Counted from the stretch's first letter, positions 5,554 through 37,249 are shown. The stretch is DNA of 64,000 bases from Lachnospiraceae bacterium UBA1683 (GCA_002320245.1 DCKD01000044.1:5225-69224), one strand, 5' to 3'. A program made the numbers and translations. The notes: generated by a model not told the origin, from the letters alone.

Positions 5554-5801
5554 TTAGAGTGTCAAAACTACTTATGGATTGTTTCGCTGCTTTGCAGCTC
5601 CCACAATCCTGCCCTGCATTCGGAATTGGTGGAGCCTCTTCTCCACTTCTTTCTCATGTAGGGGCGCGTCATAAATCCATTCTCCCACTTGCGTGCGGGC
5701 ACGACGTGTGAGATGGCTTTTGACGCTGTAATCATATTATAGAATTTCACGGCTAAATGGAATTTAGCAATTGATACCGGGTGATGAAAGAGGACTTTGA
5801 G

Positions 5802-7012: not shown

Positions 7013-8047
7013 ATGGGTATAATCATAGCAATTCTTTTATTCAGCGCAATTGTTATCTTCCATGAATTAGGTCATTTTCTGCTGGCAAAGGCAAATGGTA
7101 TCCGTGTAGATGAATTTTCACTCGGGCTTGGTCCGACTTTGTATGGAAAGAAAATCGGCGGGACGAAATTTTCGTTAAAACTGCTCCCATTCGGGGGGGC
7201 TTGTATGATGGGGGAAGATGATGCGGACGATATGTCCGAGGGGAGCTTTAACAGTAAATCAGTGTGGTCAAGAATCTCGGTGATTGTAGCCGGACCGGCA
7301 TTCAATCTGGTTCTGGCATGGATTCTCTGTATTATCATGATAGCGTGGATTGGATACCGCGCTCCGGTTCTGGACGGTGTAGAGGAAGGGTACTCTGCAA
7401 TGGAGCAGGGAATGCAGGCGGGGGACAGAATCACGGAAATCAACGGTCACAGCATTCATCTGTGGGATGAGATTACACTATACAATCTTTCTGTTCAGCC
7501 TGGAGAACAATTAGACGTAACATATGAGAGGGACGGAGAGAAACATACTGCAATGTTAGAGGCAAGACAGCTTGCAGGGGATTCCTACGCAAGGCTTGGA
7601 ATCGCAAGCACCGCAGAAAGAACGAAACCGGGAGTACTCGGCACGGTTCAATATGGCGCCTATACAGTGAAATACTGGGTATCCTATACGTTTGAGTGCC
7701 TGAAGATGCTTGTCACCGGTCAGGTTGGAATCAAGCAGATGTCCGGACCGGTCGGAATCGTGCAGGTTGTAGACAGCGCTTATCAACAGGCAAAACCGTC
7801 GGGAATACAGGTTGTGATTCTGAATATATTGAATATCGGAATTCTGCTCACAGCGAACCTCGGCGTCATGAATCTGATTCCGTTTCCGGCACTGGACGGT
7901 GGAAGACTGGTGTTCCTTCTTGTAGAGGCAGTACGCGGGAAACGAGTGCCGCCGGAAAAGGAAGGTATGGTGCACTTTGCAGGATTCGCATTGTTGATGA
8001 TATTGATGATAGTCGTGATGTATAACGATATCATGAGGATTTTCTGA
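7013..8047 (+). CDS. rseP: RIP (site-2) zinc metalloprotease RseP/YluC family
   Basis: The N-terminal TM carries HELGHFLLA (HExxH). There is a central PDZ-like region, and a C-terminal NLIPFPALDGG motif. The start was taken at MGIIIAI; the upstream part of the track ORF overlaps dxr. Confidence 0.9.
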   Translation: MGIIIAILLFSAIVIFHELGHFLLAKANGIRVDEFSLGLGPTLYGKKIGGTKFSLKLLPFGGACMMGEDDADDMSEGSFNSKSVWSRISVIVAGPAFNLVLAWILCIIMIAWIGYRAPVLDGVEEGYSAMEQGMQAGDRITEINGHSIHLWDEITLYNLSVQPGEQLDVTYERDGEKHTAMLEARQLAGDSYARLGIASTAERTKPGVLGTVQYGAYTVKYWVSYTFECLKMLVTGQVGIKQMSGPVGIVQVVDSAYQQAKPSGIQVVILNILNIGILLTANLGVMNLIPFPALDGGRLVFLLVEAVRGKRVPPEKEGMVHFAGFALLMILMIVVMYNDIMRIF

Positions 8048-8119
8048 ACCTGTGTCCGGTCGGTATTCTACAGTTTCTGAATGGGTGGGCTGTAAATCAG
8101 GCGGAATGTCAGGTATTTG

Positions 8120-8193
8120 AAAATAAGGGTATGGTAATGCATTTGTCCAAGGTTTGGTGACGTTGGATTCCTGGATTACCATACCCTTATTTT
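8120..8193. repeat. perfect 19-bp inverted repeat (AAAATAAGGGTATGGTAAT / ATTACCATACCCTTATTTT) with 36-nt loop; partial third arm at 8202-8220
   Basis: Read directly from the sequence. It lies in the 370-nt gap between the convergent rseP and MATE genes. Confidence 0.85.
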
Positions 8194-8418
8194 GCGGGAT
8201 TTTACCGTATCCCTTATTTTGCAGACTCTTGTGTACTGTCTCATTCATATTTCGCCAAATAGCGTGCCTGAATTTCCATCCCCTGCATTGTCGTCAATCA
8301 ACGATGCCACCGCATCGCCTCATTCTTTCGCCTTGCGGACTGAAAATTCATTCTGTGCTATTTAACTGAACGTGAATGAGACAGTGCACTGGTTTAACAG
8401 ACAGCAGCTATGGATGTG

Positions 8419-9783
8419 TTAAGCGGACAATTCCCGCAGTACCTTCCGGAATTCGAAGAAGAAAAGAACCGAGGTGAAAGTAACCGCCAGAAAATCTGCG
8501 ATTGGCTCTGCCATGTAAACTGCCATTGTCTGGTTGGAGCGGATGATTGCCGGCAGGATGTAAATCAGTGGAATGAGCAATATAAATTTTCGCATTACGG
8601 CAACGATAATGGAAGCCTTTGCCTTTCCGATGGAAGTAAATGTCATCTGGCAGGCCATCTGGATACCGAACAGGAACAGGCATGCCAGATAGATGCGCAA
8701 TGCGTTTGCGGTAAATGCAAGTAATTGGGCGTCGGATGTAAACATGGCCGCGAAGACCTGCGGGCAAATCATGACGGACAGCCATAACAGGGTAGCGTAA
8801 GTGAGGTTTACTTTCAGCAGCAGTTTGAAGGCCGCTTTCACACGGTCTTTATTTTTTGCACCATAGTTGTAGCTGATAATCGGCTGCGCACCCTGCCCAA
8901 GTCCCTGAAGCGGCAGCATGGCGAACTGCATGACGCTGGTTAGGATAGTCATGGCTCCGACTGCGATATCTCCGCCATATTTTAAAAGTGAAGAGTTAAA
9001 GCATACGGAGATAATACTTTCACTTGCCTGCATAATAAAGATGGAAGAGCCGAGGGCGAGCGCAGGCAGAATAATTGTACGCTCCGGTTTCAGATTGCAG
9101 CGTTTGATTTTTAAAAATGTTTTCTTCCCGAACAGGAATGCCAGTACCCAGATACAGGAAAGCGCCTGGGAAATGATTGTGGCGAGGGCAGCTCCGCGGA
9201 CACCGAGCCCAAATCCAAAGATGAAAACCGGATCCAGAATAATATTTGCCACGGCGCCAATCAGGACGGAAAGCATTCCGGTTTTGGCAAATCCCTGTGC
9301 GGTGATAAATGCATTCATACCGAGGGTAAGCTGTACGAAAATAGTTCCTATGGCGTAAATGTTCATATATGACACTGCATATTCGATTGTATTTTTACTG
9401 GCACCGAAGGAAAGTAAAAATGTCCGGTTTCCCAATAAAAGAATGATGGTCAGGATAATTGAAATGATAATTTGTGTGGTAAAACAGTTTCCAAGCGTTT
9501 TCTCGGCAGAGTTGGAATCACTTTGCCCCATGAAAATCGATGCACGGGGAGCACCTCCGTTTCCAACCAATGCCGCAAAAGCTGCCACAATCATAATCAA
9601 AGGCATACAGACACCCACGCCGGTCAGCGCGAGCGCGCCGACGTTTGGAATATGGCCGATGTAAATGCGGTCGACGATATTGTAAAGCATGTTAATCATT
9701 TGGGCGGCGACTGTTGGAAGTGCAAGCCGCAACAATAATTTTCCAACGGGTTCATTCCCTAAAAAGTTCTGATTTTCCTTCAT
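8419..9783 (-). CDS. MATE-family efflux transporter
   Basis: 454-aa, 12-TM-like protein. The N-terminus (PVGKLLLRLALPTVAAQMINMLYNIVDRIYIG) is typical of MATE/NorM proteins. Confidence 0.88.
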   Translation of the reverse strand: MKENQNFLGNEPVGKLLLRLALPTVAAQMINMLYNIVDRIYIGHIPNVGALALTGVGVCMPLIMIVAAFAALVGNGGAPRASIFMGQSDSNSAEKTLGNCFTTQIIISIILTIILLLGNRTFLLSFGASKNTIEYAVSYMNIYAIGTIFVQLTLGMNAFITAQGFAKTGMLSVLIGAVANIILDPVFIFGFGLGVRGAALATIISQALSCIWVLAFLFGKKTFLKIKRCNLKPERTIILPALALGSSIFIMQASESIISVCFNSSLLKYGGDIAVGAMTILTSVMQFAMLPLQGLGQGAQPIISYNYGAKNKDRVKAAFKLLLKVNLTYATLLWLSVMICPQVFAAMFTSDAQLLAFTANALRIYLACLFLFGIQMACQMTFTSIGKAKASIIVAVMRKFILLIPLIYILPAIIRSNQTMAVYMAEPIADFLAVTFTSVLFFFEFRKVLRELSA

Positions 9784-9804
9784 TGTTTTTCTCCTTGTTT
9801 TGTT

Positions 9805-10242
9805 TTATAATTTTTTCATGGCGTTTTTTGCATTTTCCGCAACCAGTGAATTCAGACGGTCAAACTCTTTTCTGTCGTTGTCCGACAGTCCCTGAAAAAG
9901 CTGCGCGTAAAGGCTGTCCTGTGCTTTTGCAATCTTATCGGTAATTGCTGTTGCAGCGGGCATAAGAGAAAGATGAATCTTTCGGCGGTCATTCCCATCG
10001 GGTGTCCGCCTCAGCAAGTCCTTCTGAATCAGAAGTTCCACAGCATGAGAAACATTTCCCTTTGAAAGCATACGCAGCTCGACAATATCTCCGGCGGTGT
10101 CTTTCCCAGGATTGTTGTAGAGAAAGCTGATAATCGTTGCTTCAATCAGAGAAAGCCGGTACTGCTCGCAAATCTGCTTGAGTATACTTTCATGCAGTTT
10201 CGTCATCTGGCGGAAGTTGACAAGAAAATCTGTAGTATTCAT
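9805..10242 (-). CDS. MarR-family transcriptional regulator
   Basis: Winged-helix core LSLIEATIISFLYNNPGKDTAGDIVELRMLSKGNVSHAVELLIQKDLLRRTPDGNDRRK. The start was taken at MNTTDF, with GGAGG upstream. It lies directly upstream of the MATE gene. Confidence 0.85.
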   Translation of the reverse strand: MNTTDFLVNFRQMTKLHESILKQICEQYRLSLIEATIISFLYNNPGKDTAGDIVELRMLSKGNVSHAVELLIQKDLLRRTPDGNDRRKIHLSLMPAATAITDKIAKAQDSLYAQLFQGLSDNDRKEFDRLNSLVAENAKNAMKKL

Positions 10243-10343
10243 CGGAAAACCTCCTTTCGGCAAAAAAGTTCCAAATAAAACAGTTCTAAAAAGAACTAAC
10301 AATGTTATTATATATCTGAATTGTAATCTTTGCAATGTAATAC

Positions 10344-10372
10344 TTGATAAAATTGTATCAACATGGTAGAAT
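10344..10372 (+). promoter_or_regulatory. sigma-A-type promoter (TTGATA-17 nt-TAGAAT) driving the Mn riboswitch/mntP
   Basis: -35 at 10344-10349 and -10 at 10367-10372, with exact 17-nt spacing. Confidence 0.6.
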
Positions 10373-10377
10373 AAATC

Positions 10378-10510
10378 ATCTCCACGAGGGAGTAATCGGC
10401 GTATTTGATATGTTGTACTATCGACAGAATGGCGCAGGGGCGTCCGGTATTACTGTAAACGATGAGACTCATGGACAGTATTGAGACTGTCTGTGTGTCT
10501 CTCTTTTATT
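10378..10510 (+). promoter_or_regulatory. yybP-ykoY (manganese) riboswitch with terminator expression platform
   Basis: It carries the conserved GAGGGAGUA and AUUGAGAC elements, followed by a GAGAC...GUCUC hairpin and U-run at 10504-10510. It lies directly upstream of an MntP-type Mn exporter, the canonical context. Confidence 0.7.
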
Positions 10511-10535
10511 ACATACGAAAGGAAAAAACAGAGGA

Positions 10536-11099
10536 ATGGGACTTTTAGAACTTTTTATTTTGGCAGTAGGATTATCAATGGATGCATTTGCAGTTTCGGT
10601 CTGCAAGGGATTATCACTTGGGAAGATTAAGGGGAAACACATGTGTGCCGCCGGCGTCTGGTTCGGTGGATTTCAGGCGCTGATGCCATTGATTGGATAT
10701 TTTGCAGGCAAGTTTTTTGCAGATATGATAACAGAATATGACCACTGGATTGCATTTATCCTACTTGTATTTATCGGCGGGAGCATGGTGAAAGAGTCGT
10801 TCGGTGATGAAGAATGTGCTGACAGTTCCATGGATGTGAAGACCATGTTTATGCTTGCGGTTGCAACTAGTATCGATGCTCTTGCAGTTGGCGTAACATT
10901 TGCCTTTTTGAAGGTCGCAATTGTCCCGGCGGTATCCTTTATCGGGATTGTAACATTTGCCTGTTCCGCAGCGGGTGTTAAAATCGGCAGCATCTTTGGT
11001 ATGAAATATAAATCAAAAGCAGAGTTATGCGGCGGCTTGATATTGATTTTGATTGGATTGAAAATCCTCCTTGAGGGAGTCGGGATTCTCGGTGTGTGA
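10536..11099 (+). CDS. mntP: manganese efflux pump MntP family
   Basis: 187-aa membrane protein with duplicated LSMDAFAVS / TSIDALAVG motifs characteristic of MntP (DUF204). Confidence 0.88.
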
Positions 11100-11303
11100 C
11101 GGACCGAATGTGTCCTTATCCGGTGGGGAAGTTATAGCCCCCGAGGCAAGCCGACGGGGCATCAAACTTGCGGCGCAGCAAGCAGCAGGGTATTTGCCTT
11201 TCGTGGCAGCCGCCAAATGTAAGCAGGCTTGTGCTTGGTCTATTGCTTGTAGGAATAAAGAATGTGGGGTGGAAACAGCGTGAGAAAAAACGGAAAGAAT
11301 AAC

Positions 11304-12518
11304 ATGGAAACTCGTGTTAAAGATAATGAAAAAACAAGTATAAAAAGCAGTGTGAAAAAAAATGCAAAAGCCAGACAGGCATGTAACATTTCAAAAAAAT
11401 GCGGGAGCTGTCAGTATCAGGGGATTTCTTATGCGGAGCAGCTAAGAAAAAAGCAGCATCAGGAGGAGACGCTTCTCGGGACATTTGGTAAAGTAAATCC
11501 GATTATCGGTATGGAGAATCCATATTATTATCGAAATAAAGTGCACGCGGTTTTTGGATGTGACCGCCGCGGCAATGCAATATCCGGCACATACGAAGCG
11601 AACAGCCACCGTGTTGTATCGGTAGAGAACTGTCTGATTGAGGATGCAAAAAGTCAGGAAATTATCCATACAATCCGCGGAATGCTGAAGTCATTTAAAA
11701 TCAAAACCTATGATGAAGACACCGGATACGGGCTGCTGCGGCATATTCTGGTCCGAAGAGGATTTAAAAGCGGAGAGATTATGGTGATACTGGTACTTGG
11801 TTCACTAATTCTTCCGTCCAAAAATAATTTTGTGAAGGCATTGCGAAAAGCTCATCCGGAGATTACAACAGTTGTACTAAATGTAAATGACAAAAGAACA
11901 AGCGTGGTACTTGGGGAAAAGGAAAAAACGATTTATGGACCTGGGTTCATTCGGGATGAATTATGCGGCTGTACATTTCGCATTTCCCCGAAATCGTTCT
12001 ATCAGGTAAATCCTGTCCAGACAGAAAAACTTTACGGTACGGCAATCACATTTGCCGGATTGAGCGGCAAAGAAACTATCATCGATGCTTACTGCGGAAT
12101 CGGAACCGTCAGCCTGATTGCGGCAAAACATGTGAAAAAAGTCATCGGTGTGGAGCTGAACAGGGATGCAGTCCGGGACGCCCGGACAAATGCAAAAGAA
12201 AACCGGATAACCAATGCAGAATTCTACCAGGGAGATGCGGGAGATTTCATGGTAGCAATGGCAGAAAAGGAACAGCGTGCAGATGTTGTATTTATGGATC
12301 CGCCACGTTCCGGAAGTGATGAAAGGTTTCTCTCCTCAGTCGTGAAATTAGGCTCCCCAAAAGTTGTGTATATTTCTTGCGGACCGGATACGCTTGCACG
12401 GGATTTGAAGTACCTGACGAAATACGGATATCAGGTGGAGAAAATACAGCCGGTGGATATGTTTCCGTTTTGCGACCATGTTGAGAGTGTCGTGTTGATG
12501 TCAAAAGTCGAGAAGTAG
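11304..12518 (+). CDS. 23S rRNA (uracil-5-)-methyltransferase, RumA/RlmCD family
   Basis: N-terminal Cys cluster (CGSCQYQ...ENC), SAM motif DAYCGIGT, and catalytic-region motifs DPPRSG and YISCGPDTLARD. The start is uncertain (11262 or 11304). Confidence 0.88.
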   Translation: METRVKDNEKTSIKSSVKKNAKARQACNISKKCGSCQYQGISYAEQLRKKQHQEETLLGTFGKVNPIIGMENPYYYRNKVHAVFGCDRRGNAISGTYEANSHRVVSVENCLIEDAKSQEIIHTIRGMLKSFKIKTYDEDTGYGLLRHILVRRGFKSGEIMVILVLGSLILPSKNNFVKALRKAHPEITTVVLNVNDKRTSVVLGEKEKTIYGPGFIRDELCGCTFRISPKSFYQVNPVQTEKLYGTAITFAGLSGKETIIDAYCGIGTVSLIAAKHVKKVIGVELNRDAVRDARTNAKENRITNAEFYQGDAGDFMVAMAEKEQRADVVFMDPPRSGSDERFLSSVVKLGSPKVVYISCGPDTLARDLKYLTKYGYQVEKIQPVDMFPFCDHVESVVLMSKVEK

Positions 12519-12738
12519 ATGTACGGAAAAGGCTTGAAAACAAGGGATTTCCGAGGTGGAGCAGATTTTGGACACAGGGCAACACGACCGGGAAATAAGA
12601 AGTTTGCTGTCAGCGGAAACATATCTACATGAAAAAATGACGGAGGGTTGAGTTGACAGCTTGTAAAATGGGTAGGTTGAGTGGATAGGTTGGATATTTG
12701 CAGGTCGAGTTGACAAGATTGATAATTTGATGAGAAAC

Positions 12739-12770
12739 GGCACCTTGTAGTGATATGAGGTGCCATTTTT
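12739..12770 (+). terminator. rho-independent terminator (GGCACCT-12 nt-AGGTGCC + T-run)
   Basis: 7-bp GC-rich stem followed by ATTTTT, about 220 nt after the methyltransferase stop. Confidence 0.6.
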
Positions 12771-12819
12771 ATGAGAGAAGATAAAGATAGAGAGGCAATC
12801 CAAGTGTAAAAGAGAATAG

Positions 12820-13374
12820 ATGTCCGGAGATCTTGCCCCGCTATTCGGAAGAAATCTGGACGGTGGGAAAGTTAGTTTGTGGATATCAGAGTTGACCTAT
12901 TTATATAGTGGTGAGAATTGCTGGAAGAAGTCTTTTCCATATGATATACTGGCAATGAGAGCAAAGGGATTAGTAAAAATTGCTATAGATGTTGTCTTTG
13001 ATTATCTCGAAGGTAAGGTTAAAGACTTTCCAGAAATAATAGAACAACTACGAAATAGTCCAGAAGCAGAGCAGAAAGTAGCCTCTTTATGGTCTGAATA
13101 TCTCTTTGAGAAAGGTCTCGTGTCAATAGGCTATAATGGTTTGTCAGATAAGCTTCTGATTTCTAATTTCCATCAGGAGGGATATTTAGATGGACTATAT
13201 GCAGGCTATGCCCTTGCGATGATGGCTATGGTAGACAACGATGCTCCCAAGGATATAATCCTTGCTGCAAGAGATTATATTCGTTCCAATTTAATAGACC
13301 ATCATTATGATGACAAAGATGAATTTATCGATTGGTATAAGGATGAGAAATATAGCTGGATTGATAAAACATGA
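12820..13374 (+). CDS. hypothetical protein (island gene A, 184 aa)
   Basis: Open frame in the AT-rich block. There is no convincing RBS at 12820, so the start is uncertain (internal Met at 12955). I recognise no family. Confidence 0.45.
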   Translation: MSGDLAPLFGRNLDGGKVSLWISELTYLYSGENCWKKSFPYDILAMRAKGLVKIAIDVVFDYLEGKVKDFPEIIEQLRNSPEAEQKVASLWSEYLFEKGLVSIGYNGLSDKLLISNFHQEGYLDGLYAGYALAMMAMVDNDAPKDIILAARDYIRSNLIDHHYDDKDEFIDWYKDEKYSWIDKT

Positions 13375-13445
13375 GAACCGTTACAGTTAAAAGTTATGAT
13401 AAAATAAAAATAGCGTATTAAGTACAAAATTACTGAGGAGGAGAA

Positions 13446-15101
13446 GTGATGTTAGACACTAAGCTATTTGCCTTGGATGCATCTTATATTAGAAGAGCTT
13501 TCCAAATGTCAGTAGAGTTGGATGTAAAGAACAGTGTATTTGGCACAGTTAAGTACAATGGAACTGTTATATATAATTGGGCAAAAAATAAATTTGTGGG
13601 TTTACAGATGCCTTCAAATATACATAATTTTTCTAAAAATCGTTCAGGGCAGGAAGTAAATGTCCTTTATAATCCGGAAAAACCCTATTTTTGTATTAAA
13701 GCATCACATCCAGATAAAACAGTTCCTGGGAGATTTTGGACTACCGAAGCAGAGATTCTTGTGAGTAACGGAAAGGTACTGTTGGGGGTAAAATTATCAT
13801 ATTCGACTCCGGTATCACAAGATAAGGAAATGATTGATTATAGTGTGCCTGTTTTTGTATGGAAGATATATAGAAATAATGGTATAGCAGATGTAAGAAG
13901 TCTTAAATCCCATGTATGGCAGATTGATGAGAAAAATATTGATGAGTTGTATGACTTTATACAAAATCGTAATAGAAGAATGCCTGTAGTGGTTATTACA
14001 GAAAGCGTGAATGTTGAAGGAGTAGGAGGACAATATTTAAGTGGTTATCTCGTAAATGGTGAAAGACTTGCTACAAAGGTAGGACTGATAGCTCATGTTG
14101 TATGCTTGGCTGATAATGTATCACAATTGTGGAATGAGAAGGTGGGAAGAAGCTGGGGTGTCTATAATGGAGCAGTGAGGACGTATTTCCCAGGCGCCGA
14201 TTTTAGTGATGAAACATATATGCAACATCCATTATCTGTAGCAAATAGAATTCTTGCGACTCATTATGAGGATGAAAAAGGAAAAGAATATATAGCTGGA
14301 GAAGCATTTGAATATGTTTTGATGAATAATCTAAGAAAGTATAATACTAATGTACACCTAGACTGGGAGAATATTGGCCATAAGTTTTATTTTGCTGCAA
14401 ATCGTGAGGAACTACGTAATAAAGAAAGAACGGTCGAGGATGCTGTATTGTTAAATGAAATGTATGAAGAACAGATACAGCAACTGGAGAAAAAAATTAA
14501 GAATCAGGAAGACGAAATAATTACAGCGATGATTGCGACAGAAAATATAGAGAAGGAACTGGAAGAAAATAGGCAAACGATTTATAGACTCAATATGCGA
14601 GTTGAGTCTTTAACATGTCAATTGGAAAAGTTGCGTGAAGGAAACCAGAGCGATATTCCTATTCTTAATGACTACACACAGTTGGTGGAGTGGGTTGAAA
14701 CGTATTTTCCAGGAAGATTAGTGTTGCACAATAGAGCTATTAGGGCATTAAAAGGGGCAGTGTTTAATGATCCAGAATTGGTTTTCAAAGCATTAAAATT
14801 GCTTGGCACAACTTACTATCAGATGCGTATGGGATATGTATCATTACAGGAATTTACAGATCAGTGCACTGAGCTTGGAATTGAAGAGGCGGGGTCCATT
14901 GCTGATACGGTAGCAGGAGAGTTAGGGGATACATATTTTGTCTCTTATCATGGGAAGAAATGTAAGCTAGAGAGACATTTAAGAAAAGGAAAAGTAAGAG
15001 ATCCTCAGTTTTGTATGAGAATATATTTCTTTTGGTCAGAGGAAGAATCCCAGATAGTTATAGGATCGTTGCCACAGCATTTGACTATAAGTACAAGTTG
15101 A
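13446..15101 (+). CDS. hypothetical protein (island gene B, 551 aa): unknown N-domain + central coiled coil + conserved-looking C-terminal domain
   Basis: Strong RBS GAGGAGGAG before GTGATG. A heptad-rich, E/K/Q-rich segment spans roughly aa 322-400. I recognise no Walker or nuclease motif. Confidence 0.75.
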   Translation: MMLDTKLFALDASYIRRAFQMSVELDVKNSVFGTVKYNGTVIYNWAKNKFVGLQMPSNIHNFSKNRSGQEVNVLYNPEKPYFCIKASHPDKTVPGRFWTTEAEILVSNGKVLLGVKLSYSTPVSQDKEMIDYSVPVFVWKIYRNNGIADVRSLKSHVWQIDEKNIDELYDFIQNRNRRMPVVVITESVNVEGVGGQYLSGYLVNGERLATKVGLIAHVVCLADNVSQLWNEKVGRSWGVYNGAVRTYFPGADFSDETYMQHPLSVANRILATHYEDEKGKEYIAGEAFEYVLMNNLRKYNTNVHLDWENIGHKFYFAANREELRNKERTVEDAVLLNEMYEEQIQQLEKKIKNQEDEIITAMIATENIEKELEENRQTIYRLNMRVESLTCQLEKLREGNQSDIPILNDYTQLVEWVETYFPGRLVLHNRAIRALKGAVFNDPELVFKALKLLGTTYYQMRMGYVSLQEFTDQCTELGIEEAGSIADTVAGELGDTYFVSYHGKKCKLERHLRKGKVRDPQFCMRIYFFWSEEESQIVIGSLPQHLTISTS

Positions 15102-15175
15102 TTTTGGAGAAAATCATGACGGCGATTAGAATTGACACTTATAAGCAACAGGATATGTGGATGTGAGGAGAACGT

Positions 15176-15955
15176 ATGAAATTAAAAAGAGAATGTAATA
15201 CTTGCGAATTTAATTTTGATGGTATTTGTGCAGGTCATGGGGAGGTATATGATTATGGAGAAAAAATAGTTGATGATACAAAGTGCTGTGATGATTGGGG
15301 GGCCAATCTTAAGTATTTTTCGGAAGTCACTGAGAATGCGCCGTGGTATATAAGGAATGATTATAAAATAAGTTTTGGTGAACTTTTGAAACGCATAGAT
15401 GATGATGAGAATGGAATCGCTCTTGAAGTGAATCTATATGATGCGATAGAGAAAATTTACGATTTAAGTTTGGTGGAGTTAGCAGAAGTATTAGGGGTAT
15501 CATTAGGTGTCATTAATTATGCTAAATATCAAGGAACTGTGGCAAAAAGGGCATCGGAATTTTCAGCTAGATTATGTATTCCAATACGTTTTTTTAATCA
15601 TTTTACAACGCACGATTTTGAAGAACTAAAGAGGTGTAAAGAAGAATTTGAGGCTAACGGTGATCCTAAATTATTTAGCGATAAAAAAATGAAATGGAAA
15701 GAAGAAAAACTAATTCCTAGAATTGAAGAATGTTTGGGTTGTACGCATACATCTGCACAAAAATATTATACGATAACACATATTGAGTGGCATAAAAATA
15801 TGGAAATAAGCGAACTAAGTAAAATGGAAAAGGAGTTTATTGAATTTATAATTCGGATTAATAAAAGGAAAGGGTACGAATTGACATCTTTTGAATATCT
15901 GATAGATGGAATTGGTTTTCCAAAGTTGCATTTGAATTATATGAAAAAGAAATAG
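15176..15955 (+). CDS. hypothetical protein (island gene C, 259 aa): N-terminal Cys cluster + putative HTH
   Basis: RBS GAGGAG 5 nt before the ATG. It has CNTCEFNFDGIC...CCDDW, and an HTH-like stretch LSLVELAEVLGVSLGVINYAKYQG. Confidence 0.7.
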   Translation: MKLKRECNTCEFNFDGICAGHGEVYDYGEKIVDDTKCCDDWGANLKYFSEVTENAPWYIRNDYKISFGELLKRIDDDENGIALEVNLYDAIEKIYDLSLVELAEVLGVSLGVINYAKYQGTVAKRASEFSARLCIPIRFFNHFTTHDFEELKRCKEEFEANGDPKLFSDKKMKWKEEKLIPRIEECLGCTHTSAQKYYTITHIEWHKNMEISELSKMEKEFIEFIIRINKRKGYELTSFEYLIDGIGFPKLHLNYMKKK

Positions 15956-15970
15956 AAATACATATCCATC

Positions 15971-16082
15971 GGTGCACCCTCTCACTGGCTTGCGTACCAT
16001 AAATTGATACAATGCACCCTTGGCTGTCAGAGGGTGCATTTTTAACGATTACCCATACTCAAAAAACGATAGGGTGCATTTG
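15971..16082. repeat. repeat A, copy 1 (112 bp; second copy at 28779-28890)
   Basis: Near-identical to 28779-28890. It contains the hairpin AATGCACCCT-10 nt-AGGGTGCATT plus T-run, and four GGGTGCA/TGCACCC words. Confidence 0.9.
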
Positions 16083-16655: not shown

Positions 16656-17190
16656 AAACTTATCAATATAGACCCATAAAGTTATCTTTCATGACAACGA
16701 ATAATAAGAAATCTATGGTAACATCCTACCCGTAGTGGTAAATTATTCTACAGGAAAGGGTGCGAAGCATGGAAAATGAAGTATATGAAAAAGATTATGG
16801 AGAGGAATTCCGGGAGCGAAGCAATAAGGCAGAAGGAAAGGATTTTTTAGACACATTGATGGATGTTGGATTCTTCCAGGCGTATAAAGAAGAAATGGAC
16901 AAAATCCCAAAGCGTGTGGTTCCCAAAGAAAAAGCGGATTATGAATACTTGCTTGGAGAGTGTGACGCTTACGTCCGACAGTTCGGTGGAAGAATACGGG
17001 GCGAGGTAGATTACCAGAAATGGCAGGCTACCATTGATCTGTACCTGGAACATTTTGAGTTCTGTGACCGGGAGGCACTGACATTGCTGAAGGAGATCGC
17101 AGAGCGGGCGGAGAATGTGACGTTTTCGATGAAAGATGGGTTGCTTCGGATGTCGGTGTTCATTGGATATTTTGATGAAGTGTATTAAAA
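16656..17190. repeat. repeat B, copy 1 (about 535 bp; second copy at 29544-30078)
   Basis: Aligned by eye at above 90% identity. It includes a 113-nt leader and the whole 139-aa ORF. Confidence 0.9.
16769..17188 (+). CDS. hypothetical protein (139 aa), paralog of 29657-30076
   Basis: MENEVYEKDYGEEFRERS...; about 5 aa differ from the second copy. I recognise no family. Confidence 0.7.
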   Translation: MENEVYEKDYGEEFRERSNKAEGKDFLDTLMDVGFFQAYKEEMDKIPKRVVPKEKADYEYLLGECDAYVRQFGGRIRGEVDYQKWQATIDLYLEHFEFCDREALTLLKEIAERAENVTFSMKDGLLRMSVFIGYFDEVY

Positions 17191-17236
17191 AATGCTGCTG
17201 GCACATGAGAAAAGTTTCATGTATCAGCAGCTTTTT

Positions 17237-17659
17237 CTATCGCAGCAGTGGCATGCTGCCTGTGAGTTTATTGACTTTTTTCTTAGGACCGCAGATAGCA
17301 AGACCGAAGTATTGCAGAGTGCTTTCTGACACGTTTTCCATTTTTGAAATAAATTCATCATAGGTTTTACAGCCCTGTGCCAGATCGGAAAAGTCCACAA
17401 CGGTCAAATCCTGAAAGTCGGGTTGATAGAGCTTTTCACGGATTGCTTTGATGATTTCCGGCGAACCTTTTAAGATTGGTACAGGAAACTCGATGATTCC
17501 GAGATGCTCGTTTCCGCTCTGGTCTGTGACATTCGCACCGACCACCTCCGGCATTTCTTTTCCCAGGGTGATTCCCATGATAGCCGCTGTATTTGCGATA
17601 ATGCCAAGCGGCAGATTTTCGTCAATGACCATGACGCATTTTTCGTTCTGTAAATCCAT
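17237..17659 (-). CDS. DUF2000-domain protein
   Basis: 140 aa. KCVMVIDENLPLGIIANTAAIMGITLG...LTVVDFS matches my memory of the DUF2000 family. Confidence 0.6.
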   Translation of the reverse strand: MDLQNEKCVMVIDENLPLGIIANTAAIMGITLGKEMPEVVGANVTDQSGNEHLGIIEFPVPILKGSPEIIKAIREKLYQPDFQDLTVVDFSDLAQGCKTYDEFISKMENVSESTLQYFGLAICGPKKKVNKLTGSMPLLR

Positions 17660-17660
17660 T

Positions 17661-18557
17661 TTAGATTGCCTCCTGTTTTTGTGTCTTTCCTCTGTATTCA
17701 GAAAGAAACAGTCCGATCAGTGCCAGGACCGTACCAATGCCGGACATCACGGTTACTTTTTCGTTCAGGATGAAGGCGGATGTGACAACCGTAATAACCG
17801 GAACTAAGTAAATGTAAATGCTTGTTTTGACAGCACCCAGAATCTTCACAGCCATGTCCCAGGTGACGAAACAAAGTGCGGATGCGCCCAGTCCCAGGAA
17901 GATCAGATTCCCCAGGTAGACTGGATCTGCAAACCGTTCTGCTCCGATACGGAAGTCAAACAGGAATAGTGCAGGTATCATAAATATAATGCCATAGGCA
18001 AATACCCGCCTTGTAGTCTGGATGGTATGATATCCGAATTCGCTGATTTTCCGGATGAGTACAGAGTAACAGGCCCACACGACTGCCGCAGCTACTGCCA
18101 GCAAGTCACCGATGGGATTTAACTGCATCTTTGCTCCGTTGAAGCTAATCAGGCAGATGCCGGTCATTGCAACTATAAATCCTATGAAAAAATTTGTACG
18201 CAGCTTTTCTTCCTTTGTAAACAGGTGGGTGAGCATCGCTGTGAAAAAGGGTGCTATGGAGATGATCACACCTACATTGGAGGCCATTGTATAAGTCAGG
18301 GCAATGTTCTCCAGCAGATAATACAGGCACACGCCGCACAGTCCCGCCGCTGCAAAGACAGCTTCCTGCCGTTTGGTAGTGCCTCTCATCCGGTGGGGAT
18401 AGACGATCAGCAGTGCCAGAAATCCCAGGATAAACCGGAAGAACAGGATTTCTATCGGTTCAAAATCCACTAACAGCACCTTGGTGGAGATGAAGGTAGT
18501 TCCCCATATCAGGATCGTTACCAGCGCCGCCAGATGCCCGGTTGTTTTTTTACTCAT
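17661..18557 (-). CDS. DMT-superfamily (EamA-like) transporter
   Basis: 298 aa, 10-TM-like, with two EamA-type halves (ILIWGTTFISTK..., AVVWACYSVLIRK...). Confidence 0.85.
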   Translation of the reverse strand: MSKKTTGHLAALVTILIWGTTFISTKVLLVDFEPIEILFFRFILGFLALLIVYPHRMRGTTKRQEAVFAAAGLCGVCLYYLLENIALTYTMASNVGVIISIAPFFTAMLTHLFTKEEKLRTNFFIGFIVAMTGICLISFNGAKMQLNPIGDLLAVAAAVVWACYSVLIRKISEFGYHTIQTTRRVFAYGIIFMIPALFLFDFRIGAERFADPVYLGNLIFLGLGASALCFVTWDMAVKILGAVKTSIYIYLVPVITVVTSAFILNEKVTVMSGIGTVLALIGLFLSEYRGKTQKQEAI

Positions 18558-19410
18558 CCGGCGTTTCCTCCTTCTCTAAAAATATGTCACGGTAAAGGCC
18601 CGGTGCCAGTCCGATAAATCGGTTGAAATAGTTCGTGAAATGACTCTGGTCGGAAAAGCCTGTCTGCATAGCCGCCTCTATCGGAGGTACCCCCTGCTCC
18701 AGAAGTTTCTTTGCTTTGCCAATGCGTATGTTCTCCAAGTAGCTGTATGGCGTGACGCCTTTGGACTTGGTAAAGGCCCGGAGCAGTGTGGATTTGCTAA
18801 GACCGGCATAGCGGCAGATCTGGTCTAAATAAATCCGGTCTGCAAAGTGCTGCTCCATAAAATCACAGGCTTTTTCAATTTCCTCCCGGCATTCCGGGAT
18901 GCATCTTTCAAAGGGCTGCCCGTACCGCTGAATCAGTAGGGATATGAGGAGTAACAGGTTTTCTTCCTTACCGAACTCACAGGAGCCTTTCATGACCAGT
19001 TCGTGGAGTGGGTGTAGGTAGCAGGTCACTTCCTCATCGAAGATCACATTTTTGGAAAAGCCGGGGAGTTCTCTTCTCCCGGTCACTTCTTCTGCCAGGT
19101 CCAGCATGACTTCTTTGGTGATATTAAATCCCCGGTAATCCAACGTGCCATCATCACTCTGCACACAGGCATGATTGTCTCCGGGATTGAAAAGAACGAT
19201 ATCACCTTTTGCTATGGTGTATTCTTGATTGCGACAGGAGAGGCAGCGTTCTCCGTCCTCGATAAATCCAATTACATAGTATTCATGGAAGTGGTTTGGA
19301 AATGGCTGTACGATTCCCTCAAAACGGTACGCCTCAATCCGAAGCTCATCATCATAAACCACCGTCCTTGTTTCTTTCTTCATGTTTGTTCCCTCCTTGC
19401 TGTTCTTCAT
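18550..19410 (-). CDS. AraC-family transcriptional regulator (cupin N-domain + HTH)
   Basis: The C-terminus (LDQICRYAGLSKSTLLRAFTK...IEAAMQTGFSDQSHFTNYFNRFIG) is the AraC signature. The alternative start is 19383. Confidence 0.9.
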   Translation of the reverse strand: MKNSKEGTNMKKETRTVVYDDELRIEAYRFEGIVQPFPNHFHEYYVIGFIEDGERCLSCRNQEYTIAKGDIVLFNPGDNHACVQSDDGTLDYRGFNITKEVMLDLAEEVTGRRELPGFSKNVIFDEEVTCYLHPLHELVMKGSCEFGKEENLLLLISLLIQRYGQPFERCIPECREEIEKACDFMEQHFADRIYLDQICRYAGLSKSTLLRAFTKSKGVTPYSYLENIRIGKAKKLLEQGVPPIEAAMQTGFSDQSHFTNYFNRFIGLAPGLYRDIFLEKEETPDE

Positions 19411-19612
19411 TGTAGCATTTCAAAATGCAAAAGGCTTGTAAAATATCTTCATTTTCTTCAGAATGGATAAAGGCTGGATAGTTTGCAAAGGGTGTGGTAT
19501 GCTGTAAGCAGGACATCAACATGGAAGCAGGAGCGTGAAAGCTATGACATTGAAATGGTGGATAAAGCTAACAGGACATCGTTACAAGTTGGAATGATGG
19601 GAGGTGCGTTTT

Positions 19613-20281
19613 ATGGCAAACATTTTGATCGTAGAAGATGAAAAAAATATGCAGGATATTATTGCTGAATATATGCAGCGCGGTGGACATACCTGTTTTA
19701 TGGCAGACGATGGAGTGGATGCGCTGCTGATACTGAAAAATAATCCTATGGATTTGATGATACTGGATATTATGATGCCTCATCTGGACGGTTTTGCCGT
19801 GTGCAAAATGGCAAGGGAAATGAGTAATCTGCCTATTATCATGTTGACTGCGAAAAGCAGCGAAGACGATAAACTAAAAGGGTATGAATTGGGCGCAGAT
19901 GATTACATGACAAAACCATTCAGCCCCAGGGTGCTGCTGGCAAAAGCGAATGCTTTGCTGCGCCGTTCTTCTGTTGCCCCGGCAGAAACCATAAGCGTCG
20001 GTAAAATTTCCATAATCCCCGCTTCTCATAAGGTCTTTCTGGATGGACAGGAAATCACTTTGACCCATAAGGAATATGAGCTGCTTCATTTTTTCATGTC
20101 AAACCCCGGACAGATTTTTAGCCGGGAGCAGCTGCTGAACCGGATATGGGGATATGATTTTGAGGGAACGACCCGAACGGTAGACACACATATCAAAACG
20201 CTGCGGCAGAAATTGGGGGACGAAAGCAAACATATTGTGACGCTTATCCGTTCCGGCTATAAGTTTGAGGTGGCAGTATGA
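19613..20281 (+). CDS. OmpR-family response regulator (TCS-1)
   Basis: Receiver domain (ILIVEDE...LMILDIMMPHLDG...LTAK) plus winged-helix C-terminus (TVDTHIKTLRQKLG...IRSGYKF). Confidence 0.92.
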   Translation: MANILIVEDEKNMQDIIAEYMQRGGHTCFMADDGVDALLILKNNPMDLMILDIMMPHLDGFAVCKMAREMSNLPIIMLTAKSSEDDKLKGYELGADDYMTKPFSPRVLLAKANALLRRSSVAPAETISVGKISIIPASHKVFLDGQEITLTHKEYELLHFFMSNPGQIFSREQLLNRIWGYDFEGTTRTVDTHIKTLRQKLGDESKHIVTLIRSGYKFEVAV

Positions 20282-21354
20282 GTATAAAAGATAACTTTAC
20301 CTTGAAGACTGTCCGCAAAAAAATCATAATGGTTTCCAAGACAGCGGGAATTATTTTGATTATTTCTTATGTTGTATCAACCCGACTGCCCATCGACCCG
20401 GATATTTCATTTTGGATTTGGCTTTGCTTTGTCACGGCGCTGGTTTTGGTTGTTGACTATTTAATGGGGCGCTTTATCTCAAATCCTGTTTCCGAGTTGA
20501 GCCGGGCTGCCCGCCAAATGGCACATCTTGATTTTTCGTCTCCCTGTAAAATCAATACGAATGACGAATTTGGTGAGTTATCTAAAAACCTTAATAAAAT
20601 GTCTCAAAATTTGCAGCAGGCGCTTTCAGAGCTTCAAACTGCAAACGCCCAGCTTGAAAAGGACGTGGAACAGGAAAGGCTTCTTCTGATGGAAAGAAAG
20701 GAACTGGTAGACAGCCTTTCCCACGAAATGAAAACCCCATTAGGCGTTATCCGGGCGTATGCCGAGGGCTTACAAGATGAAACAGATGAAGCAAAAAGGC
20801 AAAAATATTCCGAGGTCATCATAGCCGAAACGGAGCGCATGAGCAGCTTAATTACTACGTTACTTGATTTGTCTGCGCTGGAAAACGGAGCTACACAGCT
20901 TCATCCGGAACGCTTTGACTTTGTTGAATTTCTGGAAACGGTTGCCGGGCGGCTTCTAATTGATACCCCGGATGCGGATTTTGTTTTGCAGTACGAGCTT
21001 CCAGAGTATCCCGTCTATGTCAATACCGATAAAAGCCGTATGGAACAGGTTTTAGATAACCTGATTGTCAATGCGAAAAGGAATGTCCAGCCGGGCGGTG
21101 TTTTGAAGTTGACCTTAAAAGAAAGCGCTTGTATGTTGGATTTCACTATTTTTAACCAAGGGCCGCCCATCCCGCAGGAAAACCTTTCAAAAATCTGGAC
21201 AAAATTCTACCGTGACAGAAATTCCAAATACAGCGGTTCGGGGCTGGGACTTGCCATTGTTGCACAGATTCTATCTATGCAGCATTTAACCTATGGCGCT
21301 GCAAACCAGCCCGGAGGCGTGGCGTTTTACTTCTCTATTCCCACGATAAAATGA
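20278..21354 (+). CDS. sensor histidine kinase (TCS-1)
   Basis: Two TM segments, a HAMP-like linker, the H-box SHEMKTPL, and G-box GSGLGLAIV. It has a 4-nt overlap with the response regulator. Confidence 0.92.
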   Translation: MSIKDNFTLKTVRKKIIMVSKTAGIILIISYVVSTRLPIDPDISFWIWLCFVTALVLVVDYLMGRFISNPVSELSRAARQMAHLDFSSPCKINTNDEFGELSKNLNKMSQNLQQALSELQTANAQLEKDVEQERLLLMERKELVDSLSHEMKTPLGVIRAYAEGLQDETDEAKRQKYSEVIIAETERMSSLITTLLDLSALENGATQLHPERFDFVEFLETVAGRLLIDTPDADFVLQYELPEYPVYVNTDKSRMEQVLDNLIVNAKRNVQPGGVLKLTLKESACMLDFTIFNQGPPIPQENLSKIWTKFYRDRNSKYSGSGLGLAIVAQILSMQHLTYGAANQPGGVAFYFSIPTIK

Positions 21355-21373
21355 CAACCTGATATTTGCAGAT

Positions 21374-21416
21374 AGGCTTCTGTTCTCCAAAAGGAAACGG
21401 AAGCCTTTTCTTTTTT
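21374..21416 (+). terminator. rho-independent terminator after TCS-1
   Basis: AGGCTTC...GAAGCCT stem followed by TTTTCTTTTTT. Confidence 0.65.
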
Positions 21417-21428
21417 CGCTCAAAAGAT

Positions 21429-21461
21429 TTCACACCAACTTCACACCGACCTCACACCGAT
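21429..21461 (+). promoter_or_regulatory. three tandem 11-bp direct repeats TTCACACC(A/G)AC: probable OmpR-type response-regulator binding site
   Basis: TTCACACCAAC TTCACACCGAC CTCACACCGAT, with one helical turn of spacing, about 65 nt upstream of the ABC operon. Confidence 0.55.
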
Positions 21462-21525
21462 TTCAAAGCATTTTCTTATCTTTATCCCACAAAGAGGGAA
21501 CACCCCTCAAAATAAGGAGGTAACG

Positions 21526-21684
21526 ATGATGTTTTTAGGTTTGGAATGGTACTGGTGGCTTGTAATTCTGGGGGTGCTGGCAATCTCTATCCCGGTCAAG
21601 GTAAAGTTTATGAAGTGGTGGAATGAACGCCAGCGGGAAAAGAAAAAGGAGCAGCGCGGAAAATGGGGGGATGAAAATGATTGA
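21526..21684 (+). CDS. small membrane protein (52 aa), not in the supplied ORF track
   Basis: AAGGAGG lies 6 nt upstream of the ATG. The sequence is MMFLGLEWYWWLVILGVLAISIPVKVKFMKWWNERQREKKKEQRGKWGDEND: one TM plus a basic tail. Its stop overlaps the ABC ATPase start. Confidence 0.55.
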   Translation: MMFLGLEWYWWLVILGVLAISIPVKVKFMKWWNERQREKKKEQRGKWGDEND

Positions 21685-22525
21685 CGTAAAGGACTTGACA
21701 TTTTCCTATGGGAAAGACAAACAGGCATTGCATGGCCTGAATTTCTCCGTGGGAGATGGCGAAATCTTTGGGTTTTTAGGGCCGAATGGTTCCGGCAAGT
21801 CAACAACCCAAAAGATACTAACGGGCATTTTGAAAGGACATGGGGGTACGGTATCTTTATTCGGGCAGGACATCAAAAACGCACATACACAGGAATTTTT
21901 TCAAAAAATCGGCGTCCTGTTTGAGTTTCCCTATCTGTATGCCAATTTAAGCGCCCTTGACAATCTCCATTATTTTGCCTCGTTCTATCCCAAGGAGCAA
22001 CTGCGGGATGCGGAAGAACTGCTTGACGAGCTGGAATTTAAGAGGGACTTTTTGAAAAAGCCGGTTTCCTCCTACTCAAAGGGGATGCGCCAGCGTGTCA
22101 GCATGGCGCGGGCCTTAATCAGCAACCCGAAGCTCCTGTTTTTAGACGAGCCGACCAGCGGCCTTGATCCTGCCGGAGCTGTCCTCTTTCGTAAGATTAT
22201 AGAGAAAGAACGACAGAAAGGCACGACAGTATTTTTGACAACGCACAATATGCTGGACGCTGATCTGCTCTGTGACAGAGTAGCGTTTATCTCCAATGGA
22301 AATATTGTGGCGCTGGATACGCCAAGGAATCTGAAAGAGCAAAACAGCAATCACAGCATTGTCATTGACTATCTGTATCAGGGCAAGCGGGAGGAACAGA
22401 CGATGGAAGCCCCGGAGCTGAAAGCCGGTATTCCTTTTGTATATGACGAATTAATCAGCGTTCACTCACAGGAACCGACTTTGGAGGATATGTTTATTCA
22501 ATATACAGGGAGGGGGCTGACTTAA
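21671..22525 (+). CDS. ABC transporter ATP-binding protein (ABC-2 type)
   Basis: Walker A GPNGSGKST, signature YSKGMRQR, Walker B LLFLDEPTSGLD. The start was taken at MKMIDVKDL. Confidence 0.9.
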   Translation: MKMIDVKDLTFSYGKDKQALHGLNFSVGDGEIFGFLGPNGSGKSTTQKILTGILKGHGGTVSLFGQDIKNAHTQEFFQKIGVLFEFPYLYANLSALDNLHYFASFYPKEQLRDAEELLDELEFKRDFLKKPVSSYSKGMRQRVSMARALISNPKLLFLDEPTSGLDPAGAVLFRKIIEKERQKGTTVFLTTHNMLDADLLCDRVAFISNGNIVALDTPRNLKEQNSNHSIVIDYLYQGKREEQTMEAPELKAGIPFVYDELISVHSQEPTLEDMFIQYTGRGLT

Positions 22526-23517: not shown

Positions 23518-23520
23518 GGA

Positions 23521-24537: not shown

Positions 24538-24556
24538 CCTCGAGTAAGGAAATGAA

Positions 24557-24988
24557 ATGGCGGTGAAAACTATGGTGGATATCTTAATTATTGAGTCTGG
24601 GAAGGAAGATGGGATACTAAATGAAATAGTGGATTTTATATCTTCAAGGACACAGTGCCGGGTTATGAACTTACTGCCGAATTTAAATAAAAATCATTCT
24701 GCTGAAGTTTTGTCTTTTGCCGGCATAGAAGTTCGTGTCTATGAGCAGACCGTCTACCAGGATGGAGAATTAGTGCCAATGCCCCACCATGAGTTTTTTA
24801 CGTTACTCTATCTGGCACAGCATCCCGGATGGGTATTCTCGAAAGAACAAATCTATGAGGCAGTATGGAAATCGCCTGGAGATGAGTGTGGATCAGCAGT
24901 GACAAATGTGATCAGCCAGATTCGGAAGAAGATCGGGGATAGGTATATAGAAACTGTAATTAACAGCGGGTATAAATTTGTGGGATAG
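24557..24988 (+). CDS. orphan winged-helix (OmpR/PhoB Trans_reg_C-type) DNA-binding protein, copy 1
   Basis: C-terminus HHEFFTLLYLAQHPGWVFSKEQIYEAVW...VISQIRKKIGDRYIETVINSGYKFVG. The N-terminus is too short (about 50 aa) to be a receiver domain. Confidence 0.8.
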   Translation: MAVKTMVDILIIESGKEDGILNEIVDFISSRTQCRVMNLLPNLNKNHSAEVLSFAGIEVRVYEQTVYQDGELVPMPHHEFFTLLYLAQHPGWVFSKEQIYEAVWKSPGDECGSAVTNVISQIRKKIGDRYIETVINSGYKFVG

Positions 24989-25002
24989 AAAACGAAAGAT
25001 AA

Positions 25003-37246: not shown

Positions 37247-37249
37247 AAG

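Follow-up and report, generated by a model that had tools for sequence, protein, structure and literature searches.

Gene content and composition of the locus

The DNA analysed here (the window) is a stretch of 64,000 nucleotides from Lachnospiraceae bacterium UBA1683 (GCA_002320245.1, DCKD01000044.1:5225-69224), and our subject is an AT-rich block of three open reading frames (ORFs A, B and C) lying between a RumA-type RNA methyltransferase gene and a non-coding repeat, with coordinates counted from the first letter of the window. What had been suspected to be an unknown three-gene system is almost certainly, as far as its central gene ORF B is concerned, the known single-gene phage defence HEC-07, and it very likely lies at the edge of a mobile element that targets rumA. 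The features on which the following argument draws are these; numbers with the prefix L denote the loci used for comparison.

11262-12518, plus strand: RumA-type RNA uracil-5 methyltransferase gene (tRNA-U5/RumA-type; Pfam PF05958, E=2.4e-25), the putative target gene of the element
12739-12764, plus strand: intrinsic terminator-like hairpin after rumA, with an 11-bp stem followed by a T-run
12820-13374, plus strand: ORF A, apparently chimeric with a replaced 5' end, with family homology only at 12958-13374 (residues 47-184)
13427-15951, plus strand: DNA module comprising B and C, with 82.7% DNA identity over 2.5 kb to L001-L004
13449-15101, plus strand: ORF B, assigned to the HEC-07 family by PADLOC model PDLC04161, 550 amino acids (aa)
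14661-15098, plus strand: C-terminal alpha+beta domain of ORF B (residues ~405-550), a predicted RelE/YafQ-like RNase
15176-15955, plus strand: ORF C, with Cys4, helix-turn-helix (HTH) and C-terminal alpha/beta domains according to alignment and model
15958-16082, plus strand: non-coding repeat bounding the block on the right, with a second copy at 28766-28890

ORF A (12820-13374, 184 aa), ORF B as read from a GTG codon (13446-15101, 551 aa) and ORF C (15176-15955, 259 aa) all run on the plus strand, with spacers of 71 nt between the stop codon of A and the GTG of B and 74 nt between B and C, so that the layout given in an earlier annotation made from the sequence alone (hereafter the sequence-only reading) was recovered when it was re-derived. 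Because each ORF has conserved homologues elsewhere, all three are genes and not chance ORFs. The GC content is 0.335-0.376 across 13-16 kb, compared with ~0.44-0.49 in the flanking and core DNA and 0.50-0.55 at 53-60 kb, and a fine profile shows a fall at ~12.9 kb and a renewed rise at ~16.1 kb; the computed values agree with the earlier hand counts that had set a low-GC block against the core and the phage-like region, and they bear out the view of the block as foreign AT-rich DNA at the core/accessory junction. Its placement between a RumA-type methyltransferase and an island repeat also held, with the PF05958 gene found upstream and the repeat at 15958-16082 confirmed as real. The gene downstream of the block encodes a flavodoxin (Pfam PF12682), and the terminator-like hairpin at 12739-12764 lies inside a segment that is common to the window, L107 and L109 and is 98.7% identical among them.

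ORF B as a member of the HEC-07 family

The sequence-only reading could place none of the three ORFs in a family, but ORF B matched the PADLOC model PDLC04161, one of the four models (PDLC04158-04161) of HEC-07 (Hma-embedded candidate 07), with E=1.1e-97 and 326 bits, residues 15-549 aligning with positions 21-551 of the 553 in the profile, and the three other HEC-07 models matched it with E=1e-62 to 6e-42. Scans of ORF B against Pfam, PHROGs and NCBIfam returned coiled-coil noise only. Its full-length homologues (n=37) align end to end and are ~550 aa long, which indicates that the true start is the ATG at 13449, after a strong ribosome-binding site (GAGGAGG), and relatives are present in 209 species-level genomes from many phyla. 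Across 24 homologues, down to 29% identity, the invariant residues are H544 (codon 15078-15080), H510, G514, R524, Y526 and W529 in the C-terminal domain and W44, H87, D89, R95, D148, R176 and R244 in the N-terminal half; ORF B is full length and has all of them. From the profile matches and alignments, there is hardly any doubt that ORF B belongs to HEC-07.

A HEC-07 representative cloned as a single gene in Escherichia coli lowered the plaquing of several coliphages, and HEC-07 was among the seven of nine tested candidates that were found active (Payne et al. 2024, 10.1101/2024.01.29.577857). We consider that ORF B probably protects its own host against some phages, and it is the sole component of the block with an assignable defence function; what weighs against this view is that the published phenotype comes from one representative tested in E. 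coli. No later mechanistic work on HEC-07 was found in the searchable literature. The earlier suspicion of an undescribed defence locus was correct insofar as the block encodes a phage-defence gene, but the family already has PADLOC models and a published phenotype, and the PADLOC run that had been suggested as a check returned ORF B as a full-length member of this described family.

ORF B resembles the published HEC-07 in its length of ~550 aa, its full-length match to the hidden Markov model (HMM), its thioredoxin-like middle domain without CxxC, and its small C-terminal alpha+beta domain, which has a conserved His at its end (H544 in ORF B, H543 in the published protein). HEC-07 homologues of ORF B are embedded in Hma and Type I restriction-modification (R-M) loci, whereas the copy in the window comes from a Clostridia-type gut bacterium, appears to be the first cargo gene of a rumA-inserted element, and stands at the element end outside any multi-gene system; unlike most HEC-07 genes, it is followed by a Cys4-HTH gene (ORF C). 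The range of HEC-07 is hereby extended to gut Clostridia and to mobile-element end cargo. ORF B was not found in GenBank phages, and its plasmid relatives reach only ~22% identity.

Distant relatives of HEC-07 with 84-86% coverage are carried by Klebsiella plasmids of ~111 kb and Pseudomonas megaplasmids of ~590 kb (H1-H12, e.g. NZ_CP028550.1 2800-4203), where all are annotated as hypothetical proteins. The HEC-07 gene of L109 (5296-7011), in an element copy that is otherwise 98.7% identical, is called at 571 aa compared with 550, and its sequence suggests that the stop codon was lost and that the frame runs almost to the start of ORF C.

Predicted structure and mechanism of ORF B

Payne et al. 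(10.1101/2024.01.29.577857) described three domains in HEC-07: at the N-terminus one that is AdoMetDC-like, next a thioredoxin-like one that lacks CxxC, and at the C-terminus a RelE-like one, which they likened to HP0892 (PDB 4LTT) with H543 as a conserved residue. Four parts can be told apart in the AlphaFold2 model of ORF B (predicted local distance difference test score, pLDDT, 86.5), namely two successive alpha/beta domains, the first of them N-terminal, then a helix of 65 residues (332-396) and, at the C-terminus, a domain made of helices and a sheet. Residues 12-145 are modelled as an alpha/beta sandwich with pLDDT >90. The middle domain matched thioredoxin-2 (2ppt_A) in Foldseek with probability 1.0, a template modelling (TM) score of 0.44 on the target and a root-mean-square deviation (rmsd) of 3.9 over 100 columns; residues ~146-300 contain a single Cys, and CxxC is absent. 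In the model, residues 442-540 form two helices followed by an antiparallel sheet, an arrangement that fits RelE-type secondary structure.

We propose that ORF B would be a sensor and effector in one polypeptide. The N-terminal alpha/beta domain, which is of a ligand-binding type, and the thioredoxin-like domain without CxxC would form the sensing or auto-inhibitory part, and the coiled-coil helix of ~65 residues, probably a dimerisation element, would join this sensor to a C-terminal RelE/YafQ-like RNase. A phage cue would relieve the auto-inhibition exerted by the N-terminal domains and free the RNase, which would cut mRNA by means of the invariant His544, probably on the ribosome as RelE and YafQ do; translation would then halt and the infection would abort. 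We regard RelE-like RNA cleavage as a plausible mechanism whose chance of being right falls a little short of even.

Compared with the RelE/YafQ toxins (YafQ, PDB 4ML2; HP0892, PDB 2OTR/4LTT), the C-terminal domain of ORF B has a similar predicted fold and a His near the C-terminus after a beta-hairpin, but ORF B lacks an antitoxin partner, carries in addition ~400 residues of putative sensor domains, and shows no similarity that is detectable at the sequence level, with hhalign giving a probability of 0.2 against the PDB-verified E. coli YafQ. We also considered a Type II RelE-type toxin-antitoxin module and rejected it, since a conserved small neighbour is absent and ORF C (259 aa) is missing at most B loci.

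Further results weigh against the proposed mechanism together with the low hhalign probability. A profile search of PDB sequences found no RelE signal for the C-terminal domain, a Pfam scan of this domain matched Gp49 in one of 15 members with E=0.18, and the Foldseek list for the whole chain was filled by matches to the N-domain, with none for the C-terminal domain; the corresponding search of PDB sequences with the whole protein gave coiled-coil noise only. For the N-domain, the best PDB matches in Foldseek were Bet v 1/START-like (E~1e-3, TM 0.33-0.42), and neither an AdoMetDC-like fold nor spermine synthase was among the top matches. HEC-07 might instead defend otherwise than by RelE-like mRNA cleavage, through binding or depletion of a small molecule by the N-domain or through a ParE-like non-RNase activity of the C-terminal domain. 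This account, which we consider somewhat unlikely, would suit the likeness of the N-domain to ligand-binding START/Bet v 1 folds, the invariant polar residues that this domain has of its own (H87, D89, R95, D148 and R176), and the lack of a RelE signal in sequence-profile methods; in addition, RelE/ParE-fold proteins include non-RNases, according to 10.1101/2025.01.28.635273. It sits less well with the invariant C-terminal His, which stands where YafQ/HP0892-type toxins have their catalytic His, and with the terminal stretch RIYFFW...VIGSLPQH, which appears from its sequence to resemble the terminal beta-hairpin of RelE-family toxins. The RNase activity was predicted in the source paper (10.1101/2024.01.29.577857) solely from structural resemblance, and because that paper reports no active-site mutant, the RNase mechanism is itself an inference, as the present case underlines for HEC-07 in general.

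Relationship between ORF B and ORF C

Co-occurrence was assessed by tblastn and HMM searches within 95 B-family loci and also at 80 metagenome loci of the C family. C-family genes were present in only the four closest of the B-family loci (L001-L004), B-family genes in none of the 80 C-family loci, and HMM searches of 204 loci placed B and C together only in the window lineage and L001-L004. Marginal B-profile matches (E~5e-4) near C-family loci were dismissed as coiled-coil matches to small proteins of conjugative elements, not HEC-07. The genes around the B homologues change with identity: at 87%, the homologue lies in an integrase-bearing element and is followed by a C homologue (79%) and, further on, GajA; at 74% (L005), it comes directly after a Type I hsdR-M-S operon and is followed by unrelated genes, a PD-T4-6-like kinase and PDC-S02; at 59% (L009), it comes directly after a RumA-type gene and is followed by unrelated genes of 1017 and 784 aa; and at 43% (L012), it comes directly after HmaB-HmaC, which is the archetypal embedding. 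The homologues at 74%, 59%, 43% and lower all lack ORF C. As judged from these genomic contexts, ORF B acts as a single gene without an obligate partner, and co-occurrence rules out ORF C as its antitoxin or obligate partner.

A weaker form of partnership deserves consideration, in which B and C would constitute a lineage-specific two-gene variant of HEC-07, with C regulating the transcription of B or serving as a co-sensor, by analogy to the controllers and repressors found in other defence operons. The point that it can bring against the single-gene reading is that B and C form one contiguous module (13427-15951, 82.7%), from 19 nt before the GTG of B to the stop codon of C, which recurs at another genomic site in the integrase-bearing L001-L004; because the two genes travel as a single stretch of DNA in two different elements, they may be functionally linked in this lineage. 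The B-C gap is just 74 nt, ORF C has a good ribosome-binding site and an HTH, and C relatives occur in tight defence operons such as Mod-C-Res (gaps of 0-35 nt) and GajB-C (2 nt). Yet the B homologues beyond the closest ones do without C, the published HEC-07 functions as a single gene, and the C relatives are without B in all 80 metagenome loci. In addition, conservation between the window and L001 ends 19 nt upstream of B, the B-C spacer is poorly conserved, and this comparison shows no shared or conserved operator upstream of B or in the spacer. We therefore regard a two-gene variant as unlikely and retain the reading of ORF B as a self-sufficient HEC-07 gene.

Domains and genomic partners of the ORF C family

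ORF C gave only sub-threshold HTH signals in Pfam, PADLOC, PHROGs and NCBIfam. Its family is rare, with 199 cluster representatives at E<=1e-3 among 1.84 billion, many of them fragments, and it was not found in IMG/VR, GenBank phages or PLSDB plasmids. The alignment reveals a conserved N-terminal Cys4 motif, CxxCEFNFxGxC...C[DN]xWG (C7, C10, C18, C38, W41), and a central helix-turn-helix (~residues 87-140), LVELAEVLGVSLGVINYAKYQGTVAKR, and short members of 158-180 aa lack the C-terminal domain. The structural model (pLDDT 82.7) is mainly helical with a small C-terminal sheet. Fold searches found no significant global match (global E >0.2); the partial matches that recurred were to XRE/Cro-type domains and extended over ~55 residues, with rmsd ~2 A and TM ~0.6 on the target; among them were the 434 and P22 repressors, the CapH N-terminal domain, C.EcoT38IS, Stl and numerous phage 'HTH_XRE' proteins. 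A profile search of PDB sequences gave a sigma-region-4-like HTH hint and otherwise noise.

Dereplication of the C-family contexts at 90% identity left 30 clusters, of which 15 or more lay within 3.5 kb of a recognised defence gene. Seven clusters accompany Type III R-M, mostly in the order Mod-C-Res (L153, L158, L164, L170, L172 and L202) and often with an upstream DrmD-like helicase, the gap between C and Res being 26-35 nt in the 14 loci of the L153 cluster and ranging from 0 to 937 nt in another four clusters. Two clusters accompany Gabija, with the order GajA-GajB-C at L182 and with C 2 nt after GajB in one cluster; two accompany HEC-07, one ZacBC (L166, ZacB-ZacC-C) and one PDC-S39 (L197, PDC-S39 then C), and two stand beside a DpdF-like gene. 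In a rough neighbour-joining tree, the defence partners are shuffled over the C clades and do not co-diverge with them.

Our best reading of these sequence and model data is that ORF C may be a DNA-binding accessory that associates promiscuously with defence systems and perhaps controls them; its most likely role is that of a transcriptional regulator or accessory factor, one that HEC-07 does not need. Classical R-M controller (C) proteins sit immediately upstream of R genes, and the C relatives in Type III loci are likewise immediately upstream of res and co-oriented with it. Precedents for regulators of defence operons also include RptR (PMC12255303) and the BrxR/WYL family (PMC9122601), and ORF C shares with all of these an HTH and, through its family, a location near many unrelated defence systems. 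It differs from them in matching none of their families in Pfam, NCBIfam or PADLOC, and its family usually lies downstream of or inside the operon instead of at its head. Unlike the R-M C proteins, which are XRE-type HTH proteins of ~80 aa, ORF C has 259 aa with extra Cys4 and C-terminal domains, and in the window it is followed by a terminator and no restriction gene. No palindromic operator (C-box) was obvious in the B-C spacer, where no systematic search was made.

The C family, with its Cys4 module, HTH and variable C-terminal domain, might be an unrecognised accessory module of bacterial immunity that is shuffled among at least six defence systems (Type III R-M, where it lies between mod and res, Gabija, HEC-07, ZacBC, PDC-S39 and DpdF-like), acting as a metal- or redox-sensing controller of transcription in defence operons or as an embedded defence gene in its own right; we offer this tentatively, as a possible but doubtful idea. 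If the family does regulate or assist defence systems, the defence islands of Firmicutes would have in it a new control element in common, and the unannotated neighbours of its genes could be mined for new defence genes. The Cys4-HTH family is the most novel thread to come from the block. An unannotated neighbour is a 235-aa protein of Hungatella sp. (L016, 5261-5968) that has no Pfam or PADLOC match; it is encoded 33 nt upstream of a C-family gene, the two genes lie at the very end of a prophage, past holin and amidase, and it is a candidate partner of C.

A probable mobile element at the 3' end of rumA

Loci sharing the segment were found by using the downstream flavodoxin gene as an anchor. 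The segment, which runs from A, B and C through the flavodoxin gene to an ORF of 139/142 aa, follows two different chromosomal backgrounds, namely MutS2-HtrA-HD-RumA (462 aa) in L107 and L109 and MatE-MarR-MntP-RumA (412 aa) in L108 and the window, and it is 98.7-100% conserved across them with its ORFs intact. The 3' end of rumA contains an invariant 17-nt core, CCGGTGGATATGTTTCC (12450-12466, plus strand), which encodes PVDMFP and is identical in four otherwise divergent rumA genes, those of the window, L107 (~4295-4311), L109 and L009 (~5650-5666). Upstream of ~12450, the rumA genes of the window and L107 are only ~70% identical, and from ~12477 they are identical, which indicates that the end of rumA (its last ~40 nt) and all that follows come from the element. 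Because one and the same element continues from two different rumA genes just past this core, the core is its likely attachment or crossover site, as far as sequence comparison can indicate. L109 joins the shared segment just past the rumA stop codon, and the slight difference in crossover point between L107 and L109 suggests that homologous exchange between related elements may accompany site-specific integration.

Streptococcal and clostridial integrative and conjugative elements (ICEs) target the 3' ends of rumA-type genes. That such ends serve as integration sites, which the sequence-only reading had put forward for rum-type genes, fits one element standing after two rumA genes and a different element (L009) with a 59%-identical HEC-07 gene at the same post-rumA place. 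Like the rumA-targeting ICEs and the hotspots of defence cargo at prophage and ICE ends, the element replaces the rumA 3' end at a conserved core, and as in the hotspots defence genes come first after the junction and the cargo differs at the same site (window vs L009). It is unlike them in that its recombinase and opposite (right) end were not found within the 64-kb window, which weighs against the element; self-blast found no second copy of the rumA 3' end within the window, and no tRNA genes were found. On balance, it is very likely that a mobile element has recombined into the 3' end of rumA and that the block is the first stretch of its cargo, with B as its HEC-07 defence gene. The two HEC-07 genes at this one insertion site, 59% identical, form a natural pair that would be useful for specificity studies.

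The block could also be inert debris of an older element in which B is carried but silent or non-functional in its host. The visibly damaged ORF A, the lack of an adjacent recombinase, and the duplications and segmental gains and losses of the island would be in keeping with this, as would the finding that no strong consensus promoter lies upstream of B, where promoter-like sites occur at chance level. We nevertheless consider debris quite improbable, as ORF B is full length with every invariant family residue and a strong ribosome-binding site, and the segment has kept its near-complete identity and intact ORFs in different host backgrounds.

In the L009 element (7809-13233), the HEC-07 gene is followed by the large unannotated genes of 1017 and 784 aa. 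The 784-aa gene shows a faint AAA_22 match, neither gene has a convincing PADLOC match, and the two may be an undescribed system in the same cargo slot.

ORF A and the question of a three-gene unit

ORF A had no match in Pfam, PADLOC, PHROG or NCBIfam, and a profile search of PDB sequences with it gave noise only. It belongs to a family with 155 matches of ~160-166 aa that carry no family annotation, and this family aligns with ORF A only from residue 47; all nine IMG/VR matches likewise begin at residue 47-49 or later (47-80). The blastn homology to L021-L024 begins abruptly at 12958, whereas the family gene begins 63 nt earlier. The first 46 codons of ORF A are richer in GC and lack a convincing ribosome-binding site, residues ~18-46 have no counterpart in an alignment with 12 relatives, and no DNA-level homology to the family was found at the N-terminus. 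The simplest reading of these comparisons is that ORF A would be a copy, with a replaced 5' end, of a mobile-element gene family of ~160 aa. A point against it is that MAFFT aligns a faint FG-x3-LD-x2-K motif in the N-terminus of ORF A with the family N-terminus, and this resemblance means that the ORF A N-terminus might be a divergent one with an insertion of ~24-29 residues.

In L021-L025, intact A-family genes lie at the ends of prophage-like elements, where a pair of large serine recombinases (with SHOCT_2) precedes them by a few genes. The cargo beside them is VanZ/DUF1413 in Ruminococcaceae, and in L025 (4226-6507, Clostridium botulinum) it is an HTH gene together with a HEC-05/BrxU-type GmrSD defence gene (E=3e-198), the latter just upstream of the A-family gene. 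As the family is found next to variable cargo and serine recombinases, ORF A is better seen as a landmark of the cargo slot than as a partner of B. No PADLOC match was obtained for the unknown genes (250, 305 and 348 aa) that directly follow A-family genes.

The sequence-only reading had taken A, B and C for one undescribed three-gene defence or abortive-infection system, as would suit three co-directional, closely spaced ORFs in one AT-rich stretch of a defence-prone neighbourhood, and this is now extremely improbable, since A-family genes are missing from all 95 B-family loci and from every C-family locus, A was never found with B or C in the 204-locus HMM searches, C accompanies B only in its closest relatives, the family of ORF B is already described, and the homology of A, whose 5' end appears replaced (12958-13383, 86% to L021-L024), is a DNA module separate from that of B and C. 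The co-occurrence elsewhere that this idea called for was never found for A and is largely lacking for C, and ORF A was rejected as a partner gene on the same grounds.

Repeats and the wider island

The repeat that bounds the block (15958-16082) is 90% identical over 125 nt to its second copy at 28766-28890 by self-blast, with a core that is ~96% identical, and it precedes different genes in its two copies. It contains a promoter-like TGnTACAAT motif and a GC-rich GCACCC...GGGTGC hairpin with a T-run, together with a second GGGTGC that offers a possible alternative pairing, and its fold z-score is -2.4; neither the repeat nor the non-coding stretches matched Rfam. A duplication of 533 nt (93%) at 16656-17188 and 29544-30076 covers a 142-aa ORF of no family. 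L107 and L110 lack window positions 17189-29543 and join the two copies of this duplication, which indicates that the 12.3-kb segment between them, encoding DUF2000, EamA, AraC, a two-component system and ABC transporters, was gained or lost by recombination between the repeats.

Farther to the right are cassettes of a regulator and ABC transporters, and then a replication module of phage-like character that encodes DUF2800, PolA, DUF932 and SNF2 as well as a sigma factor and a MazF-domain protein. Short repeats that are 70-88% identical (24783-25506, 32896-33176, 34456-34781 and 37123-37292) accompany small regulator genes of the Trans_reg_C/HTH_16 type and separate the ABC-transporter cassettes, and from its sequence the island seems to have grown by accretion of similar modules, each a regulator plus a transporter. 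Inside the phage-like module, a 246-aa ORF (62375-63115) has a PemK/MazF toxin domain only at residues 119-223 and is thus a MazF-like toxin with an N-terminal extension of ~118 residues. At the other end of the window, positions 5565-5734 on the minus strand encode a full-length Clostridiales-1 small RNA (RF01699, 101.9 bits), which fits a host from the Clostridia.

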